A stretch of DNA of 31,056 bases, from assembly GCF_003334335.1 (NCBI RefSeq), contig NZ_QOWQ01000047.1. One strand, written 5' to 3'. A program made the translations under genes and the position numbers. The notes beneath the pieces are model-generated. The model ran no database searches, had not been told where the DNA came from, and saw only the letters and a program-made list of their open reading frames with translations. Positions within the stretch are counted from its first letter, which is position 1; every line of letters starts with the position of its first letter. This stretch comes from Escherichia coli (GTDB lineage: Bacteria > Pseudomonadota > Gammaproteobacteria > Enterobacterales > Enterobacteriaceae). This document shows positions 464 through 21,584 of this stretch, in pieces.

Positions 464-907
464 CTAACTTAGCAGTAGGTCCGCTGTGAGCGAGGTGCAG
501 AAGTTCGCAATTGTTCTCGCAACCAAGGTAGCTAAAAAACACGGCAGGCAAATGTCTACATGTAAGATACACTTGCTATTATCAAGAATTTTAGTCCTGA
601 AGCATTTTAACTTTCTTCTCATGTTTTTATATTCGCCATTTATCCATTCAGGTTCTTCCCGAATAGCTGATCGCATACAGTGTGTTAGGATATCATTCCA
701 GAAAGCTGCAATCGCATCTGCAAACTCTATAAACTGTGTTTCTGTAACCTCTAGTTGCTCATGACGTAGACTAAATCTGACGGTGTCACCACGATGTAGC
801 ATCAGCATTGCGGTGAGCCGCCGGGCATGGTTTTTGTCATTTGTTTTATGGATAGTTTTCTGCATCAGGTGCCGTTCGGCTCTGGGTATTGGTACTATGA
901 TCGGCAT
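464..907 (-). pseudogene. Transposase-like fragment: first ~45 aa resemble the HTH N-terminus of IS630-family transposases, then diverges; likely truncated or decayed
   Basis: ORF-track translation MPIIVPIPRAERHLMQKTIHKTNDKNHARRLTAMLMLHRGD... recalled from memory as IS630-family-like; the catalytic DDE part is absent. Not verified by search. Confidence 0.3.
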
Positions 908-4384: not shown

Positions 4385-5608
4385 TCATGAACACCATTTA
4401 AAATTACCATCATTAATATCATATAAAAATATATTTTTACTAAAACATGAATTGTATATATTTATTAGCTCAGGAAAATTATCAGGGTTCACCTTCAAAT
4501 TAACCTGAATGTTATGCTTAATTTCACCCAGTAGTTCTTCATGTGTGGATTTTATTATCCCATTATTATAATCGATAAATGCACACATGTTTTTTATGAA
4601 TTCAAAACCTTTTCCTGTATACAGTTTAATGAATGCCACCAGAGCAAACATTTCAAGATGTAGCCATAATGCTACGTTAGTTTTTTGCAAAGTATAAAAA
4701 ATTGAATTCGCCACTTTTTTACTTATTGCTCTTTTATACTGTGATCGAGCAAGATTCAGTAGCGGAAGCTCTCGTTCAATAAATGAATGTGAAAAGACTG
4801 GATAAATTGATGTCGGAAACCTTTCAGGCCTTATGATATTTTCTATTTCCACCATAAATCTATCCATAGAAAGAAAGTCACTTTCTTTTTTTATTCTGGT
4901 ATAGAGACCGCCTTTATTCCTTTCTGAGGTTTGTTTTCGTGCTATCCCCCCTAACAATTTCTCTAATTGTTTATTTATCTTCGTATAATTAAATACAACC
5001 ATTCTTCTTATCATCCTCGGAAGGATAATAATATCAGTGCTTGAATCACTTGAACGGCAATTATTATTTATCCATGCAACTTCAAGTTGCAGTATCGGAA
5101 CATTAACTTTTCTGGGGTGAATATCACTCTGATATCGTTTTTTGTATGCGTTTTCATTAAGATATTCTCTGCTGTAGAGAAACTTATAGCAATATAATCT
5201 GATAATATCTTTTATGTAAAATTTAAATAGTTCACCTGTAACAGATATATGTTTTCTGCTCAGTAACTCCTGTGTATTAAGCCATTCCCGTGACCGAAGC
5301 ACACCCTTGTGAAAACTTTTTCTTACTTGCTTTGAGGCACGGCATTGATGTAATATTTTTGCGTCCTCAATAATTCTCTTTCCCGTTTTATTTTTTGCAG
5401 CATCTCTTACTCCATAAAATATCTCCCGGTCCAGACTTTTGTCATATTTACTGATTATACGACAAATATTCCTGACCCGACGATTCTCTTTATTTCGCTT
5501 CCATAGCTTATAATGATCATCGCATAACCTTAAGGCATTTGCCTCATCAAATTCTGAAACAGGATTACTGCATTTTTTATTCCGACAAATACCTTTGTTT
5601 TTAGCCAT
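4385..5608 (-). CDS. Orphan hypothetical protein (407 aa), strongly AT-rich, N-terminal Cys/His cluster (possible zinc-binding or HNH-like finger); candidate cargo or defence gene
   Basis: Long uninterrupted ORF with ATG at 5606-5608 and a GGAAG-like Shine-Dalgarno upstream. Composition is visibly far more AT-rich than flanking DNA. N-terminus reads C-x4-C-x15-C-DD-H. No family recognised. Confidence 0.6.
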   Translation of the reverse strand: MAKNKGICRNKKCSNPVSEFDEANALRLCDDHYKLWKRNKENRRVRNICRIISKYDKSLDREIFYGVRDAAKNKTGKRIIEDAKILHQCRASKQVRKSFHKGVLRSREWLNTQELLSRKHISVTGELFKFYIKDIIRLYCYKFLYSREYLNENAYKKRYQSDIHPRKVNVPILQLEVAWINNNCRSSDSSTDIIILPRMIRRMVVFNYTKINKQLEKLLGGIARKQTSERNKGGLYTRIKKESDFLSMDRFMVEIENIIRPERFPTSIYPVFSHSFIERELPLLNLARSQYKRAISKKVANSIFYTLQKTNVALWLHLEMFALVAFIKLYTGKGFEFIKNMCAFIDYNNGIIKSTHEELLGEIKHNIQVNLKVNPDNFPELINIYNSCFSKNIFLYDINDGNFKWCS

Positions 5609-5661
5609 ACTCTTCTTCCCGTCAATGGAAAAATTTTCACACCCATATTACCTGAATGATA

Positions 5662-5684
5662 AACCGGATTAGTGTGATCCGGTT
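5662..5684. promoter_or_regulatory. Perfect palindrome AACCGGAT-N7-ATCCGGTT in the divergent intergenic region between the 407-aa gene and the GTPase gene; candidate operator
   Basis: Arms at 5662-5669 and 5677-5684 are exact reverse complements. It lies in the 100-bp gap between two divergently oriented start codons (5608 and 5709). Function is inferred. Confidence 0.3.
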
Positions 5685-5708
5685 CAGTGAAATCAACAGG
5701 ATACCGGT

Positions 5709-7214
5709 ATGCCATTCAGCAATTCTTCCCTCTCCGCGCAAGTGAAATCATATCTGACGTTTCTTCCTGAAGAAATACGCCAGAAAATCCTTGAACATCT
5801 CCACGGTGTTATTCATTACGAGCCCGTGATTGGCATTATGGGTAAATCCGGCACCGGCAAGAGCAGCCTGTGTAATGCCATTTTTCAGTCCCGTATCTGC
5901 GCCACGCATCCCCTGAACGGCTGCACCCGCCAGGCTCATCGTCTTACCCTGCAGCTCGGTGAACGCAGAATGACGCTGGTCGATCTGCCCGGCATTGGTG
6001 AAACACCGCAGCATGATCAGGAATACCGAGCGCTTTATCGTCAGTTACTGCCGGAACTGGATCTGATTATCTGGATCCTGCGGAGTGATGAACGTGCGTA
6101 TGCTGCCGATATTGCCATGCATCAGTTTTTACTGAATGAGGGCGCAGATCCCTCGCGCTTTCTGTTTGTTCTCAGCCATGCCGATCGCATGTTTCCTGCT
6201 GAAGAATGGAATGCCACAGAAAAATGCCCGTCCCGTCACCAGGAACTCTCACTGGCGACAGTAACAGCCCGGGTGGCCACCCTGTTCCCTTCATCATTTC
6301 CGGTACTCCCCGTAGCCGCGCCTGCAGGCTGGAACCTTCCAGCGCTGGTGTCACTGATGATCCACGCGCTGCCACCACAGGCAACCAGCGCAGTTTATTC
6401 ACATATCCGGGGGGAAAACCACTCTGAACAGGCCCGGAAACACGCACAACTGACTTTTGGTGAAACCATCGGGAAAAGTTTTGACGACGCCGTTGCCCGT
6501 TTCAGTTTTCCGCCCTGGATGTTACAGCTTCTGCGCAAAACCCGGGACCGCATTATCCACCTGCTGTTCACTGTGGCATCCTTCTCCACCTCCGCCGGTA
6601 ACTGGGCTGTCAAAAACGGCTGGTGCCAGACCATGACGGAAGATGGTCAGGCGCTGGTAATGCTGAAAAATGGCACGATTGGTATTACCGGCCTGATGCA
6701 GGGATGCCCGAATGGCGTACAGACGCTCCTGGGCAGCCGTATCAGTATTAACGGTAACCTGATCCCCACATCACAAATGTGTAATCAGCAGACGGGATTC
6801 AGGGCTGTTGAGGTGGAAGTCGGACAGGCGCCGGAAATGGTCAAAAAAGCCGTTCACTCCATAGCAGAGCGTGATGTGTCCGTTTTACAGGCATTTGGTG
6901 TACGAATGGAATTCACCCGCGGTGATATGCTGAAGGTCTGTCCGAAATTTGTCACATCACTTGCCGGTTTTTCCCCGAAACAGACACCCGCCATTAATAA
7001 AGATTCCGTCCTGCAGGCTGCCCGGCAGGCATACGCCCGGGAATATGACGAGGAAACAACAGAAACCGCTGATTTTGGCTCTTACGAAGTAAAAGGCAAT
7101 AAGGTTGAGTTTGAAGTGTTCAATCCTGAAGACCGTGCGTACGACAAAGTGACCGTCACGGTTGGTGCTGACGGTAATGCCACCGGTGCCAGCGTTGAAT
7201 TTATCGGAAAATAG
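5709..7214 (+). CDS. YeeP/YfjP/YkfA-family P-loop GTPase with an extra ~210-aa C-terminal extension
   Basis: Walker A motif GKSGTGKSS near residue 45 and a DLPG motif; the N-terminal ~290 aa resemble K-12 CP4 GTPases (about 287 aa, from memory). The ORF runs on to 501 aa. Confidence 0.7.
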
Positions 7215-7219
7215 CTGGT

Positions 7220-7453
7220 ATGTCGGACTGTCACCCTGTTTTATTGCCCGAAGGCCCTTTCTCACGCGAACAGGCGATGGCTGTCACAACAGCTTACCGC
7301 AATGTGCTTATTGAAGATGATCAGGGAACGCATTTCCGGCTGGTTATCCGCAATGCTGAAGGGCAGCTACGCTGGCGGTGCTGGAATTTTGAACCTGATG
7401 CCGGAAAACAGCTTAATGCGGGGCTCGCCAGTGAGGGAATTCTCAGGCAATAA
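7220..7453 (+). CDS. DUF905-like small protein (YkfF-like) of the CP4 island backbone
   Basis: 77-aa ORF with ...[19 protein letters not shown]...HFRLV...WNFEPDAG..., recalled as the DUF905 family. From memory only. Confidence 0.5.
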
Positions 7454-7551
7454 ACGTCTTCATTTCATCCATCAGGCCACGTCTTCTCCGGGAGACGTGG
7501 CTTTTTCATTTATTACACCAGTAAATCTTAACCACCAATAAGGAGCAAATC

Positions 7552-8370
7552 ATGCGATTAGCAAGTCGTTTTGGTTATGCGAACCAGATACGCCGTGACC
7601 GCCCCTTAACTCGCGAAGAACTGATGCAGGTCGTCCCCAGCGTATTCGGGGAAGATAAGCACACATCCAGAAGCGAGAACTATACCTGGATCCCCACCAT
7701 CACAGTGCTGGAAAGCCTGCAGCGGGAAGGTTTTCAGCCATTCTTTGCCTGCCAGACCCGCGTACGTGACCCGGGCCGCCGGGGGTATACCAAACACATG
7801 CTGCGTCTGCGCCGTGACGGGGAGATAAACGGACAACATGTCCCTGAAATCATCCTGCTGAACTCCCATGACGGTACCTCCAGCTACCAGATGCTGCCGG
7901 GTTACTTCAGGTTCGTCTGCCAGAACGGCTGCGTCTGTGGTCAGTCTCTGGGGGAAGTGCGTGTTCCGCACCGGGGAAATGTGGTGGACAGAGTCATTGA
8001 AGGGGCTTACGAGGTGGTGGGCGTGTTTGACCGGATTGAGGAAAAGCGTGATGCCATGCAGTCGCTGATTCTGCCGCCACCGGCACGCCAGGCGCTGGCA
8101 CAGGCGGCACTGACTTACCGTTATGGTGACGAACATCAGCCCGTCACCACCGCCGACATTCTGACGCCACGACGCCGGGAGGATTACGGTAAGGACCTGT
8201 GGAGTGCTTATCAGACCATCCAGGAAAATATGCTGAAAGGCGGGATTTCCGGTCGCAGCGCTAAAGGAAAACGTATCCACACCCGTGCCATTCACAGCAT
8301 CGACACGGACATTAAGCTCAATCGCGCATTGTGGGTGATGGCAGAAACGCTGCTGGAGAGCATGCGCTGA
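7552..8370 (+). CDS. DUF932-family protein (YafZ/YfjQ-like)
   Basis: 272-aa ORF; length and position after the GTPase match CP4 island DUF932 genes. The antisense 275-aa ORF (7606-8433) was rejected. Confidence 0.6.
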   Translation: MRLASRFGYANQIRRDRPLTREELMQVVPSVFGEDKHTSRSENYTWIPTITVLESLQREGFQPFFACQTRVRDPGRRGYTKHMLRLRRDGEINGQHVPEIILLNSHDGTSSYQMLPGYFRFVCQNGCVCGQSLGEVRVPHRGNVVDRVIEGAYEVVGVFDRIEEKRDAMQSLILPPPARQALAQAALTYRYGDEHQPVTTADILTPRRREDYGKDLWSAYQTIQENMLKGGISGRSAKGKRIHTRAIHSIDTDIKLNRALWVMAETLLESMR

Positions 8371-11140: not shown

Positions 11141-11983
11141 ATGTCAGACATCACAATCTCCCGTCCGGAAGTGGTCACCGGGCATACGGACGTTATCTGC
11201 TCAATCAGTATCCGCCACATTCTGGCTGTACGAAAGAGTACACTGCTGCAAATCGACACACTTATCCGGCAACTGGCTGAAATATCAGCAATGACAGAAA
11301 GTATTGGCGGTAAAGCCGCCCCGGACTGGGCCATGAAACAGGATTTTCGCTGCGGCTGCTGGCTGATGGAGAAACCGGAAACCGCAATGAAAGCCATCAC
11401 ACGCAATCTCGATCGCGAAATCTGGCGTGACCTGATGCAACGTTCAGGGATGCTTTCCTTAATGGATGCACAGGCCCGTGATACATGGTACCGGTCACTG
11501 GAGCACGATAATTTTCCGGAAATCAGTGAAGCGAACATTCTGAGCACATTTGAACAACTACACCAGAATAAGGATGAGGTGTTTGAGCGAGGGGTGATCA
11601 ACGTCTTCAGGGGACTGAACTGGAATTACAAAACCAATTGCCCCTGCAAATTTGGCAGTAAAATTATCGTCAACAACCTAGTGAGGTGGGACCGATGGGG
11701 GTTTCATCTTATCACCGGGCAACAGACTGACCGACTCGTCGACCTGGAAAGAATGCTACATCTGTTCAGCGGCAAACCGATCCCCGACAACCGGGAAAAC
11801 ATCACTATTCGTCTGGATGGTCACATCCAGTCCGTTCAGGGTAAAGAGCGCAATGAAGACGAGATGTTCATCATTAAATACTTTAAGAAGGGATCTGCAC
11901 ACATCACTTTCAAAAGGCTGGAACTGATTGACAGAATTAACGATATAATAGCCAGGTACTTTCCTTCTGTGCTCTCAGCCTGA
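11141..11983 (+). CDS. DUF4942-like protein, last gene of the island before the attachment-site repeat
   Basis: 280-aa ORF; the family name is recalled from annotations of similar islands and is not verified. The antisense ORF 11116-11601 was rejected. Confidence 0.5.
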   Translation: MSDITISRPEVVTGHTDVICSISIRHILAVRKSTLLQIDTLIRQLAEISAMTESIGGKAAPDWAMKQDFRCGCWLMEKPETAMKAITRNLDREIWRDLMQRSGMLSLMDAQARDTWYRSLEHDNFPEISEANILSTFEQLHQNKDEVFERGVINVFRGLNWNYKTNCPCKFGSKIIVNNLVRWDRWGFHLITGQQTDRLVDLERMLHLFSGKPIPDNRENITIRLDGHIQSVQGKERNEDEMFIIKYFKKGSAHITFKRLELIDRINDIIARYFPSVLSA

Positions 11984-12115: not shown

Positions 12116-12125
12116 AATTCATATA

Positions 12126-12155
12126 AACGGACCTCCACGGAGGTCCGTTTTTCGT
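12126..12155 (+). terminator. Intrinsic terminator (native pheU terminator) directly after the tRNA fragment
   Basis: AAACGGACCTCCACGGAGGTCCGTTTTTCG: a GC-rich stem (CGGACCT / AGGTCCG) followed by a T-run. Confidence 0.6.
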
Positions 12156-15969: not shown

Positions 15970-16039
15970 TTAAAAGTATTTTCCGAGGCTCCTCCTTTCA
16001 TTTTGTCCCATGTGTTGGGAGGGGCCTTTTTTACCTGGA

Positions 16040-18196
16040 GATATGACTATGAACGTTATTGCAATATTGAATCACATGGGGGTTTATTTTAAAGAAGAAC
16101 CCATCCGTGAACTTCATCGCGCGCTTGAACGTCTGAACTTCCAGATTGTTTACCCGAACGACCGTGACGACTTATTAAAACTGATCGAAAACAATGCGCG
16201 TCTGTGCGGCGTTATTTTTGACTGGGATAAATATAATCTCGAGCTGTGCGAAGAAATTAGCAAAATGAACGAGAACCTGCCGTTGTACGCGTTCGCTAAT
16301 ACGTATTCCACTCTCGATGTAAGCCTGAATGACCTGCGTTTACAGATTAGCTTCTTTGAATATGCGCTGGGTGCTGCTGAAGATATTGCTAATAAGATCA
16401 AGCAGACCACTGACGAATATATCAACACTATTCTGCCTCCGCTGACTAAAGCACTGTTTAAATATGTTCGTGAAGGTAAATATACTTTCTGTACTCCTGG
16501 TCACATGGGCGGTACTGCATTCCAGAAAAGCCCGGTAGGTAGCCTGTTCTATGATTTCTTTGGTCCGAATACCATGAAATCTGATATTTCCATTTCAGTA
16601 TCTGAACTGGGTTCTCTGCTGGATCACAGTGGTCCACACAAAGAAGCAGAACAGTATATCGCTCGCGTCTTTAACGCAGACCGCAGCTACATGGTGACCA
16701 ACGGTACTTCCACTGCGAACAAAATTGTTGGTATGTACTCTGCTCCAGCAGGCAGCACCATTCTGATTGACCGTAACTGCCACAAATCGCTGACCCACCT
16801 GATGATGATGAGCGATGTTACGCCAATCTATTTCCGCCCGACCCGTAACGCTTACGGTATTCTTGGTGGTATCCCACAGAGTGAATTCCAGCACGCTACC
16901 ATTGCTAAGCGCGTGAAAGAAACACCAAACGCAACCTGGCCGGTACATGCTGTAATTACCAACTCTACCTATGATGGTCTGCTGTACAACACCGACTTCA
17001 TCAAGAAAACACTGGATGTGAAATCCATCCACTTTGACTCCGCGTGGGTGCCTTACACCAACTTCTCACCGATTTACGAAGGTAAATGCGGTATGAGCGG
17101 TGGCCGTGTAGAAGGGAAAGTGATTTACGAAACCCAGTCCACTCACAAACTGCTGGCGGCGTTCTCTCAGGCTTCCATGATCCACGTTAAAGGTGACGTA
17201 AACGAAGAAACCTTTAACGAAGCCTACATGATGCACACCACCACTTCTCCGCACTACGGTATCGTGGCGTCCACTGAAACCGCTGCGGCGATGATGAAAG
17301 GCAATGCAGGTAAGCGTCTGATCAACGGTTCTATTGAACGTGCGATCAAATTCCGTAAAGAGATCAAACGTCTGAGAACGGAATCTGATGGCTGGTTCTT
17401 TGATGTATGGCAGCCGGATCATATCGATACGACTGAATGCTGGCCGCTGCGTTCTGACAGCACCTGGCACGGCTTCAAAAACATCGATAACGAGCACATG
17501 TATCTTGACCCGATCAAAGTCACCCTGCTGACTCCGGGGATGGAAAAAGACGGCACCATGAGCGACTTTGGTATTCCGGCCAGCATCGTGGCGAAATACC
17601 TCGACGAACATGGCATCGTTGTTGAGAAAACCGGTCCGTATAACCTGCTGTTCCTGTTCAGCATCGGTATCGATAAGACCAAAGCACTGAGCCTGCTGCG
17701 TGCTCTGACTGACTTTAAACGTGCGTTCGACCTGAACCTGCGTGTGAAAAACATGCTGCCGTCTCTGTATCGTGAAGATCCTGAATTCTATGAAAACATG
17801 CGTATTCAGGAACTGGCTCAGAATATCCACAAACTGATTGTTCACCACAATCTGCCGGATCTGATGTATCGCGCATTTGAAGTGCTGCCGACGATGGTAA
17901 TGACTCCGTATGCTGCATTCCAGAAAGAGCTGCACGGTATGACCGAAGAAGTTTACCTCGACGAAATGGTAGGTCGTATTAACGCCAATATGATCCTTCC
18001 GTACCCGCCGGGAGTTCCTCTGGTAATGCCGGGTGAAATGATCACCGAAGAAAGCCGTCCGGTTCTGGAGTTCCTGCAGATGCTGTGTGAAATCGGCGCT
18101 CACTATCCGGGCTTTGAAACCGATATTCACGGTGCATACCGTCAGGCTGATGGCCGCTATACCGTTAAGGTATTGAAAGAAGAAAGCAAAAAATAA
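16040..18196 (+). CDS. cadA: CadA, inducible lysine decarboxylase
   Basis: Translation MNVIAILNHMGVYFKEEPIRELHRALERLNFQIVYPNDRDD... The track ORF begins at 16010, but the ATG at 16040 gives the expected ~715-aa CadA N-terminus. Confidence 0.93.
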   Translation, partial: DMTMNVIAILNHMGVYFKEEPIRELHRALERLNFQIVYPNDRDDLLKLIENNARLCGVIFDWDKYNLELCEEISKMNENLPLYAFANTYSTLDVSLNDLRLQISFFEYALGAAEDIANKIKQTTDEYINTILPPLTKALFKYVREGKYTFCTPGHMGGTAFQKSPVGSLFYDFFGPNTMKSDISISVSELGSLLDHSGPHKEAEQYIARVFNADRSYMVTNGTSTANKIVGMYSAPAGSTILIDRNCHKSLTHLMMMSDVTPIYFRPTRNAYGILGGIPQSEFQHATIAKRVKETPNATWPVHAVITNSTYDGLLYNTDFIKKTLDVKSIHFDSAWVPYTNFSPIYEGKCGMSGGRVEGKVIYETQSTHKLLAAFSQASMIHVKGDVNEETFNEAYMMHTTTSPHYGIVASTETAAAMMKGNAGKRLINGSIERAIKFRKEIKRLRTESDGWFFDVWQPDHIDTTECWPLRSDSTWHGFKNIDNEHMYLDPIKVTLLTPGMEKDGTMSDFGIPASIVAKYLDEHGIVVEKTGPYNLLFLFSIGIDKTKALSLLRALTDFKRAFDLNLRVKNMLPSLYREDPEFYENMRIQELAQNIHKLIVHHNLPDLMYRAFEVLPTMVMTPYAAFQKELHGMTEEVYLDEMVGRINANMILPYPPGVPLVMPGEMITEESRPVLEFLQMLCEIGAHYPGFETDIHGAYRQADGRYTVKVLKEESKK

Positions 18197-18209
18197 TTAG
18201 CTCGTACAA

Positions 18210-18237
18210 GGGAAGTGGCTTGCCACTTCCCTTTTTT
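18210..18237 (+). terminator. Intrinsic terminator after cadA
   Basis: GGGAAGTGG-cttg-CCACTTCCC hairpin (9-bp GC-rich stem) followed by TTTTTT. Confidence 0.65.
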
Positions 18238-19712: not shown

Positions 19713-19948
19713 CTGTCGTAAAAACAATTGGTTATGAATAAATTAACTTTCAGTTTATAACACTAACAAATCGAGATTAATAAGTCATTTAAACCATTTT
19801 GATGGTTATTTATTAGTGATATCAACTTGAGGTAAGCGTTAGTTTCGATAAGATAAACTGAGTTACTAATAGTCGAGGCAGATAATACAGTGTACCGATC
19901 TGTCTCTTTATCTACGCTAAATTGAAAGCTGGATTTAGAGGAACCAAA

Positions 19949-21466
19949 ATGTCTGAACAAGAAACACGGGGAGCCAATGAGGCTATTGATTTTAACGATG
20001 AACTGAGAAATCGCCGCGAAAAACTGGCGGCACTACGTCAGCAAGGTGTGGCGTTTCCCAATGATTTTCGCCGCGACCATACCTCTGACCAGTTGCACGA
20101 AGAGTTTGATGCGAAGGATAACCAGGAACTGGAATCCTTAAACATTGAAGTCTCGGTTGCTGGCCGAATGATGACCCGTCGTATCATGGGGAAAGCCTCC
20201 TTTGTAACGTTGCAGGATGTCGGTGGCCGTATTCAACTGTACGTTGCAAGAGATAGCCTGCCAGAAGGTGTTTATAACGATCAGTTTAAAAAATGGGATC
20301 TGGGTGACATTATCGGTGCCCGCGGTACGCTGTTTAAGACGCAAACGGGTGAGCTTTCCATTCACTGTACTGAGCTGCGCCTGCTGACTAAAGCACTACG
20401 TCCTTTACCAGATAAATTCCATGGTCTGCAGGATCAGGAAGTCCGTTATCGTCAACGTTATCTGGACCTCATCGCTAACGATAAATCCCGTCAAACGTTT
20501 GTTGTCCGTTCAAAAATTCTGGCCGCTATCCGTCAATTCATGGTCGCGCGCGGCTTTATGGAAGTAGAAACCCCGATGATGCAGGTAATTCCAGGTGGGG
20601 CATCTGCTCGCCCGTTTATTACCCATCATAATGCTCTGGATTTAGATATGTATCTGCGTATCGCGCCGGAGCTGTATCTGAAACGTCTGGTTGTAGGCGG
20701 TTTTGAACGGGTATTCGAAATCAACCGTAACTTCCGTAATGAAGGTATTTCTGTTCGCCATAATCCTGAGTTCACAATGATGGAACTCTACATGGCGTAT
20801 GCGGATTACCACGATTTGATTGAACTGACAGAGTCACTGTTCCGCACCCTGGCACAAGAGGTTCTGGGTACCACTAAAGTCACTTATGGCGAGCATGTGT
20901 TTGATTTCGGCAAACCGTTTGAAAAACTCACCATGCGCGAAGCAATCAAAAAATATCGTCCAGAAACCGATATGGCCGACCTGGATAATTTTGATGCTGC
21001 TAAAGCATTAGCTGAATCTATCGGTATTACGGTAGAGAAAAGCTGGGGGTTGGGACGTATTGTCACAGAGATCTTTGATGAAGTGGCAGAAGCACATCTG
21101 ATTCAGCCAACCTTTATTACGGAATATCCGGCAGAAGTGTCCCCGCTGGCACGCCGTAATGATGTTAACCCGGAAATCACCGACCGTTTTGAATTCTTCA
21201 TCGGTGGTCGTGAAATCGGTAATGGTTTTAGCGAATTAAACGACGCAGAAGATCAGGCTGAACGTTTCCAGGAACAGGTTAATGCTAAAGCTGCAGGTGA
21301 CGACGAAGCCATGTTCTATGACGAAGATTACGTGACTGCGCTGGAATATGGTCTGCCGCCAACCGCTGGTCTGGGTATTGGTATCGACCGAATGATTATG
21401 CTGTTTACTAACAGCCATACTATTCGCGACGTTATTCTCTTCCCGGCGATGCGCCCACAGAAATAA
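19949..21466 (+). CDS. lysU: LysU, lysine--tRNA ligase (heat-inducible isoform)
   Basis: Class II lysyl-tRNA synthetase sequence starting [33 protein letters not shown]...; the track ORF starts 27 nt earlier at 19922. Assigned as lysU rather than lysS by synteny with cadA and dtpC. Confidence 0.9.
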
Positions 21467-21479
21467 ATTTCACTTTAAT

Positions 21480-21509
21480 GAACGAAGCAGTCAGGCGACT
21501 GCTTCGTTC
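21480..21509. terminator. Hairpin between convergent lysU and ghoT; possible bidirectional terminator
   Basis: 13-bp perfect stem GAACGAAGCAGTC / GACTGCTTCGTTC with a 4-nt loop. T-tracts on both sides are weak. Confidence 0.45.
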
Positions 21510-21584
21510 ATCGTTCCGCAAATCCAGTTTTGAGGAGAGACGCTTCGTTTCACGATAACCAGCGGGTCCACTCAACTACAGCTC

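Follow-up and report, generated by a model that had tools for sequence, protein, structure and literature searches.

Stem-loops at the 5' terminus stabilise E. coli mRNAs, an example being the hairpin in the ompA 5' UTR, and BrxR, CapW and DriD are cases of autoregulation through palindromic operators of dimeric HTH/WYL regulators, the HTH+WYL class generally acting as dimers on inverted repeats. A conserved sequence beside an inverted repeat that varies is an arrangement seen also in rolling-circle origins and oriT sites. In Pseudomonas aeruginosa, AlpA acts at promoters with a binding element in the spacer between the -35 and -10 hexamers and a terminator ~26 bp downstream (PMC7969949). Genomic SELEX with the RpoD holoenzyme has identified sites upstream of the K-12 GTPase genes ykfA and yfjP, with the promoter assigned as TTGAAA-15-TATCAT; that study gives the promoter hexamers only, and a leader hairpin is not described in it (Shimada et al. 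2014, PMC3946193). In the literature on yfjP, ykfA, yeeP and yfjR we found no mapped start, 3' end or operator, and neither ykfA nor yfjP is present in the term-seq supplements of PMC7815308.

The window considered here, a single stretch of 31,056 nucleotides, is an E. coli CP4-like integrative island. Roughly one third to one half of complete E. coli genomes carry islands of this type, among which are CP4-6 and CP4-57, cryptic prophages of K-12. In these islands variable cargo stands next to a fixed backbone whose genes include one for antirestriction and the CbtA/CbeA toxin-antitoxin pair. The island gene order runs from an inovirus-Gp2-family gene through the variable cargo to a YfjP-family GTPase, an HTH+WYL regulator and a hypothetical protein, and continues with DUF905, DUF932, the antirestriction gene, JAB/RadC, DUF987 and YeeU/CbtA. 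Between cargo and GTPase lies a palindrome, which we consider, with a probability of about 60%, to be the DNA copy of a transcribed 5' leader stem-loop of the GTPase operon that was formerly a terminator.

The palindrome and the backbone module

A sequence-only reading of this DNA had placed the palindrome at 5662-5684, between divergent start codons at 5608 (minus strand) and 5709 (plus strand), and had interpreted it as an operator at which a dimeric regulator coordinates the cargo gene with the backbone GTPase operon. Its position and sequence are as described there. In the ORF list the two divergent genes are separated by a 100-bp gap (5609-5708; Table 1), and both start codons are identical to those annotated by PGAP in sister islands. 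As in the earlier description, the gap serves as control region for the backbone GTPase operon and contains the palindrome as a conserved element. The 23-mer occurs once in the 31-kb window, even if two mismatches are allowed. As a null for its origin by chance we counted, in Markov shuffles, every perfect inverted repeat whose arms reach 8 bp and whose loop does not exceed 12: the window contains 43 overlapping repeats of this kind at ~20 distinct places, against 6.7 +/- 3.4 in the shuffles, and given that only ~0.02 are expected per 100 bp of shuffled sequence, a chance origin of the repeat at 5662-5684 is unlikely. Most of the numerous inverted repeats of the window are terminator-like. Perfect repeats of ~12 bp per arm (for example AAGGGAAGTGGC-TT-GCCACTTCCCTT) are seen at 12125-12150, 18208-18233 and 21481-21516, each downstream of a large ORF (11141-11983, 16010-18196 and 19922-21466, respectively), and look like ordinary terminators. 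No covariance-model match at the Rfam gathering score was obtained in the window or in 18 loci of other clades, and a search of the 201-nt palindrome region with E up to 10 returned only chance-level matches (E = 5-7).

Table 1. Coordinates of the features of the control region, with natural variants of the palindrome arms
Feature	Position	Strand	Remarks
Cargo ORF, 407 aa	4385-5608	-	Divergent; one of several alternative upstream neighbours
Hypothetical ORF across the leader	5530-5715 (window ORF); 2888-3082 in L003; 1388-1582 in L088	-	
Predicted -35 hexamer ATGGAA	5625-5630	+	3/6 matches; 15-nt spacing borrowed from K-12; weak prediction
Conserved box TTTCACACCCATATTACC	5635-5652	+	Family consensus TTTCAGAyAkATATYAYC; in more general form TTTCAsnnnnATATYAYC...TGAA
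Predicted -10 hexamer TATTAC	5646-5651	+	Position of K-12 TATCAT; putative in the window
TGAT (family TGAA)	5657-5660	+	T, G and A (nearly) invariant at +12 to +14 of box
Leader stem-loop (predicted fold)	5662-5684	+	RNA stem of 10 bp (5662-5671 with 5675-5684); loop GUG 5672-5674
Palindrome left arm AACCGGAT	5662-5669		Perfect 8-bp arm
Palindrome spacer TAGTGTG	5670-5676		Between the arms
Palindrome right arm ATCCGGTT	5677-5684		Perfect 8-bp arm
Post-stem tail CAGTGAAATCAAC	5685-5697	+	Position of the relatives' T-run
Shine-Dalgarno AGGA	5698-5701	+	
GTPase ATG start	5709-5711	+	
GTPase ORF, 501 aa	5709-7214	+	First backbone operon gene; YfjP-family GTPase fused in frame
Arm variant A5662G			G.U; plus-strand pairing kept
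Arm variant A5663G			G.U; pairing kept; 19/103 metagenome copies
Arm variant C5664T			U.G; pairing kept
Arm variant C5665T			U.G; pairing kept
Arm variant C5680T			G.U; pairing kept
Arm variant T5683C			A.C; pairing broken; 1/103 metagenome copies

Of 5426 complete E. coli genomes, 1869 contain the 78-nt leader at an identity of at least 80%, and a further search, fished with anchors placed in the invariant flanks only, recovered 103 metagenome copies. Alignment of islands with at least four unrelated upstream genes, some of them in the opposite orientation, reveals that homology starts sharply at window position 5634, and the palindrome is thus part of the GTPase-side backbone module. Among the metagenome copies the perfect palindrome is kept behind at least 12 different upstream sequences. 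Islands carrying other cargo genes hence keep the palindrome, which is the conservation that the sequence-only reading had proposed to look for; its suggestion that the palindrome coordinates cargo and backbone is, however, contradicted by the same boundary, since the element lies wholly within the GTPase module, whatever the upstream gene or its orientation.

Pfam, NCBIfam and PADLOC yielded no family for the cargo ORFs, among them the 407-aa ORF of the window. The N-terminus of this window protein is rich in Cys and His (C-x5-C ... C-x2-H) and may constitute a small zinc-binding module. Unrelated proteins of 320-376 aa occupy the same position in other islands, which gives the slot the look of a cargo hotspot. 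Across the conserved leader, and overlapping the GTPase start, the PGAP annotation of some genomes has a minus-strand hypothetical protein of 64 aa (WP_001304548.1); it is probably an annotation artefact, because the promoter and hairpin are conserved there.

A conserved promoter box followed by variable hairpins

To compare control regions we collected 80 loci by homology to the GTPase protein (mostly 33-52% amino-acid identity) from Escherichia, Klebsiella, Enterobacter, Citrobacter, Salmonella, Serratia, Yersinia, Pectobacterium, Photorhabdus, Erwinia and other genera; given this mode of retrieval, the palindrome could not bias the sample. In 69 of the 75 loci with a usable start codon, spread over many Enterobacterales, the YfjP/YkfA-family GTPase gene is preceded by a conserved box, and these loci share one layout: an A/T-rich stretch, the box AATTTCAGAyAk-ATATYAYC-nnnn-TGAA with several invariant positions in the family alignment, a stable hairpin, usually a T-run, and then the Shine-Dalgarno sequence and ATG. 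The hairpin begins 11-32 nt after the ATATYA core of the box, 11 nt in the window. A regular expression for the box has 67 matches on both strands of ~640 kb, every one upstream of a GTPase gene; within these ~640 kb there is accordingly no dispersed regulon of the box. In the E. coli clade to which the window belongs (the window, L001-L007 and L088-L096) it reads TTTCACrnCCATATTACC. Five GTPase homologues, from an Enterobacter MAG, Buttiauxella, Intestinirhabdus and Limnobaculum (L022, L028, L029, L030 and L038), have neither box nor hairpin; the DNA upstream of them resembles the 3' end of a coding region, with an HTH+WYL homologue upstream of the GTPase, and theirs is a different operon arrangement.

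The hexamers assigned by SELEX map onto the box in the K-12 sequence, TATCAT corresponding to TATYAY and TTGAAA falling at -20 to -15 of the box. On the strength of this coincidence the box appears to be a sigma-70 promoter, defined in vitro for K-12 ykfA and yfjP and predicted for the window. The corresponding -35 position of the window falls in cargo-specific DNA and differs between islands, and the putative promoter ATGGAA-15-TATTAC has 7 of 12 consensus matches, which is below the scan threshold. As a consensus promoter and terminator scan of 5300-6000 found nothing in the intergenic region, the promoter is assigned here by its homology with the SELEX sites of K-12. Transcription would then start at G5658 or A5659, 7 nt past the -10 hexamer.

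A leader was counted as terminator-like if it had a hairpin of at most -7 kcal/mol and, after it, five or more T in eight nucleotides. A plus-strand hairpin with a T-run of this kind is present in 56 of 68 distinct leaders (82%), as opposed to 2/68 in the reverse complements, 1/68 in same-length segments at -400 and 0/68 inside the gene. The stems of different clades are unrelated in sequence (CCCCGC..GCGGGG, GGCCATCC..GGATGGCC, ACGGCGAATCC..GGATTCGCCGT, GGCAGC..GCTGCC and GTGGCGG..CCGCCAC), stem length, loop length and distance from the box are all variable, and double-sided compensatory changes affect 8 of the 11 stem pairs of clade D, to which K-12 ykfA belongs. Unrelated and covarying stems with a T-run on one strand only point to selection on structure and polarity rather than on sequence, and judged by these features the hairpin and T-run of the relatives are a promoter-proximal intrinsic terminator or leader attenuator; K-12 ykfA carries the full set of box, hairpin and T-run. 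Strand-neutral mismatches across 57 distinct hairpins of the family are distributed as 25 G.T and 18 A.C (p = 0.36, by an ungapped method that miscounts bulges), and alifold energies calculated per clade show no consistent asymmetry between plus and minus strands, so that the strand polarity comes from the T-run alone.

The leader stem of the window

As RNA, the window palindrome is predicted to fold into a stem of -11.5 kcal/mol (z = -4.3) with a single U.G pair, a 4-bp G-C core and a 3-nt loop, the minus-strand version being weaker (-9.3 kcal/mol). In a leader starting at G5658, about 4 free nucleotides would precede the 10-bp stem, and the Shine-Dalgarno sequence and AUG would be unpaired. 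The hairpin is stable and G+C-rich with a loop in the 3-8 nt range, like the stem-loop of an intrinsic terminator; no U/T-tract, however, is found 3' of the stem, where the tail reads TTCAGTGA, and the window leader therefore fails the terminator definition applied to its relatives. The nearest outgroup (L008, 52% identity) retains a T-rich tail, which makes loss of the T-run in the E. coli clade of the window the more parsimonious course of events. Other possibilities were considered and rejected: a long-range pairing of CTGAATG (5652-5658) with CATTCAG (5713-5719), which would bury the AUG, requires a start upstream of the predicted one and is broken without compensation in L004 (first C to A) and L006 (A to C); an alternative CCGG/CCGGU pairing is lost in half of the copies, namely those that read AACGG; and a CsrA-type GGA motif, as read from the sequence, is absent from the hairpin loop.

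Natural variants bear on whether the pairing of the arms matters. The perfect dyad is the commonest allele (57 of 103 metagenome copies), and in the clade of the window 99.2% of pair cells are still paired as plus-strand RNA. Six distinct arm-site variants occur among ~120 copies (Table 1): five still pair as plus-strand RNA, one would do so as minus-strand RNA, and none is DNA-symmetric. The probability of at least five such outcomes in six is 0.11 under a transitions-only null and ~0.02 under a null with a 2:1 transition:transversion ratio, and the wobble bias of the arms thus favours RNA pairing in a manner that is suggestive but not strong. Across the 20 stem positions of the same copies there are no indels and no transversions. 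The arms are not better conserved than their flanks (variable columns 5/16 and 6/43, respectively), overall identity among the E. coli leaders is 92-100%, and part of this conservation may reflect mere recent spread; a shuffle control on the E. coli alignment encountered too little variation to discriminate.

Together these observations suggest the following account. In the clade of the window transcription would begin at ~5658, placing the stem-loop at about +5 to +27, and the hairpin would no longer terminate efficiently because its U-tract has been lost, the stem itself probably being retained by selection for pairing. Our best guess as to its remaining role, by analogy with the way 5'-terminal stem-loops generally behave in E. 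coli, is that of a 5'-terminal stem-loop acting against 5'-end-dependent decay or of a pause site for RNA polymerase, through either of which it would set a basal level of the backbone operon.

Competing explanations

The proposal closest to the sequence-only reading is that the dyad, at about +5 to +27, is the binding site of a dimeric HTH regulator from the island or the host, which would block the GTPase operon and possibly also influence the cargo promoter. The dyad is indeed perfect and in a control region, it overlaps the predicted start region, which is the classical position for a repressor, and most related operons encode an HTH+WYL regulator; moreover, the minus strand of the box reads TAATAT, which would place the dyad over the -35 zone of a possible cargo promoter. 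Other observations speak against such an operator. All six natural variants are asymmetric, with no corresponding change in the opposite half-site, variation in the arms is no lower than in the flanks, the half-sites are 15 bp apart from centre to centre, the 31 kb contain no second site, and the T-run of the relatives is on one strand only. The HTH+WYL protein, encoded just after the GTPase in ~60 loci, has its first 60 residues, recognition helix included, 90-100% identical across loci with unrelated hairpins (100% in L015, L016 and L020, 98% in L082 and L083, 97% in L059 and L079). With near-identical HTH regions facing unrelated hairpins, it would appear that this protein cannot be reading the hairpin arms. 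In the loci from L007 to L086, where its gene lies ~1-2 kb downstream of each GTPase start, the HTH motif RHDRLAVRLSLIISRL...GVSVRTLRRDF is exceptionally conserved across genera, far above the 33-52% identity of the GTPase. As this parallels the conservation of the box, the box is a better candidate operator for the HTH+WYL protein than the hairpin arms, if that protein binds here at all.

The regulator gene itself is missing from the window. The 501-aa GTPase ORF is a fusion in which residues 1 to ~286 are 97% identical to an intact 294-aa GTPase and the C-terminal part corresponds to residues 9-225 of a 225-aa hypothetical protein (98%) that is normally encoded two genes downstream; the junction lies near 6560-6570, at a shared IIHLL motif, and the underlying deletion has eliminated the gene for a 226-aa HTH+WYL (YfjR-like) regulator. 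In the sister island L001 the HTH+WYL gene lies at 7237-7917. Both fused genes are intact in the closest relative of the island, and the deletion is absent from all of the best-matching complete E. coli genomes listed. The HTH+WYL gene is also absent from L006, L090 and L091, and there, as in the window, the palindrome is retained. The window locus has neither this cognate regulator gene nor an AlpA-family gene; a regulator may be supplied in trans by another island, or some other protein may bind the dyad. In K-12, YfjR gave no binding in ChIP-exo (PMC8464067), which again counts against an operator, and we found no characterised YfjR operator in the literature. Of the original interpretation, then, the control region and the conserved perfect dyad stand, and its dimeric regulator finds little support in arms that vary asymmetrically, do not track the HTH and outlive the regulator gene; we regard a DNA operator as unlikely.

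That the hairpin is still an attenuator, with NusA/NusG-assisted termination or a long pause occurring despite the poor U-tract and relieved by an island factor such as an AlpA-family antiterminator, also strikes us as improbable. The hairpin is positionally equivalent to clear leader terminators, and in a relaxed scan (CCGG...CCGG, then TTCAGTGA) two U follow the G-C core of the stem. AlpA-family genes (PF05930) are divergently encoded within 3 kb in at least 31 related loci, and the sister island L001 has one at 1418-1651. The promoter spacer, where the P. aeruginosa AlpA element is also located, holds the best conserved part of the box. Nevertheless, the tail of the window leader is not that of a terminator, the P. 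aeruginosa binding motif GGGACG-N5-GGTA bears no relation to the box, and a search of the window for AlpA-family homologues yielded none at E <= 1e-3, an IS630 remnant being found instead. This remnant of an IS630-family transposase (~778-906, minus strand), located by means of L096 (3205-3333), lies upstream of the Gp2-family gene, at a position that in L001 is taken by the AlpA-family gene and a gene for a 191-aa hypothetical protein. An ORF of 147 aa at 464-907 (minus strand) gave a weak PADLOC match to HamA/DUF1837 (E = 0.001, 16.5 bits), which is probably spurious, as the ORF overlaps the IS630 remnant and is unannotated in the closest genome.

Two further explanations dispense with regulation. 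A decaying former terminator devoid of function, conserved merely through the recent divergence of the islands, would account for the high identity of the E. coli leaders, for arms no better conserved than their flanks and for a U-tract that has already decayed; it is nonetheless very unlikely in view of the preservation of pairing by five of the six arm variants, the rarity of the disrupting one (1/103) next to the common A5663G wobble (19/103), and stem positions free of indels and transversions. Even less credible is a DNA site for recombination or replication, such as a nick site or origin for the inovirus-Gp2-family protein or a joint for cargo exchange. The Gp2-family gene is present in the island (1290-2021) and the boundary of cargo homology is only 28 nt away, yet the distance from box to hairpin varies between 11 and 32 nt, the T-run, Shine-Dalgarno sequence and ATG come directly after, and the box is bound by RNA polymerase in vitro (SELEX, PMC3946193). 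The boundary is moreover the upstream edge of the promoter and, given this coincidence, needs no special explanation.

The leader stem-loop formerly acting as a terminator remains our preferred reading. Beyond it, one might conjecture that the box, hairpin and T-run upstream of YfjP/YkfA/YeeP-family GTPases form a cassette that holds the backbone operon (GTPase, WYL regulator, DUF932, antirestriction, RadC/JAB and CbeA/CbtA) off by promoter-proximal termination until an island factor loads at the spacer, the clade of the window being an escape variant that has no U-tract and is expressed constitutively. For this factor one could think of an AlpA-family antiterminator or of the HTH+WYL protein, the HTH of which equals the box in conservation. 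The promoter spacer is strongly conserved in the relatives (AATTTCAGA), and the window, which lacks the terminator, has the variant TTTTCACACCC; a loading element there is putative, and the cassette as a whole we would call possible but doubtful.

Relation to described systems

The palindrome is a real, conserved cis-element. In kind it is conventional, though not annotated, namely a leader hairpin or attenuator, and we found no description of the family-wide cassette beyond the two K-12 promoter hexamers. Should it be an instance of a family-wide promoter and leader-hairpin cassette, these operons would be controlled through attenuation of transcription rather than at a repressor site. Ready-made test systems then exist in K-12 ykfA and yfjP, and the clade of the window is a natural terminator-loss variant. 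As the element is outside Rfam and a hypothetical ORF is annotated across the leader in some genomes, its recognition would also improve annotation.

Of the described systems, the promoters of K-12 ykfA (CP4-6) and yfjP (CP4-57) have the box at the equivalent position before a homologous GTPase gene; the K-12 copies read TTGAAA-15-TATCAT, with the full hairpin and T-run in the case of ykfA, whereas in the window the hexamers are ATGGAA-15-TATTAC, the stem is a different one and the T-run is missing. With the operators of the BrxR/CapW/DriD type the locus has in common a perfect dyad close to the start site of an operon in which an HTH+WYL protein is normally encoded; it differs in that the window half-sites do not track the HTH, the variants are asymmetric and the window lacks the regulator gene. 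In the wider family a G+C-rich hairpin and U-tract lie within ~20-60 nt of the promoter, ahead of the first gene, and this layout resembles antitermination units of the Q or AlpA type, namely lambda PR'-tR'/Q and P. aeruginosa PalpB-tB and PPA0807/AlpA (PMC7969949, PMC9371919), which likewise combine a sigma-70 promoter with a following hairpin and U-tract in a mobile-element operon. The unusually conserved promoter spacer and the AlpA-family genes in many islands of the family add to the likeness; the window, on the other hand, has neither U-tract nor AlpA-family gene, and its spacer motif is unrelated to the P. aeruginosa element, so the resemblance is a lead and not a finding. With ompA-type 5' stem-loops the window leader shares a hairpin of -11.5 kcal/mol ~4 nt from the predicted 5' end, an open Shine-Dalgarno sequence and AUG, and a pairing that is conserved while the sequence is free, although it has no sequence homology to known stabilisers and its 5' end is a prediction.
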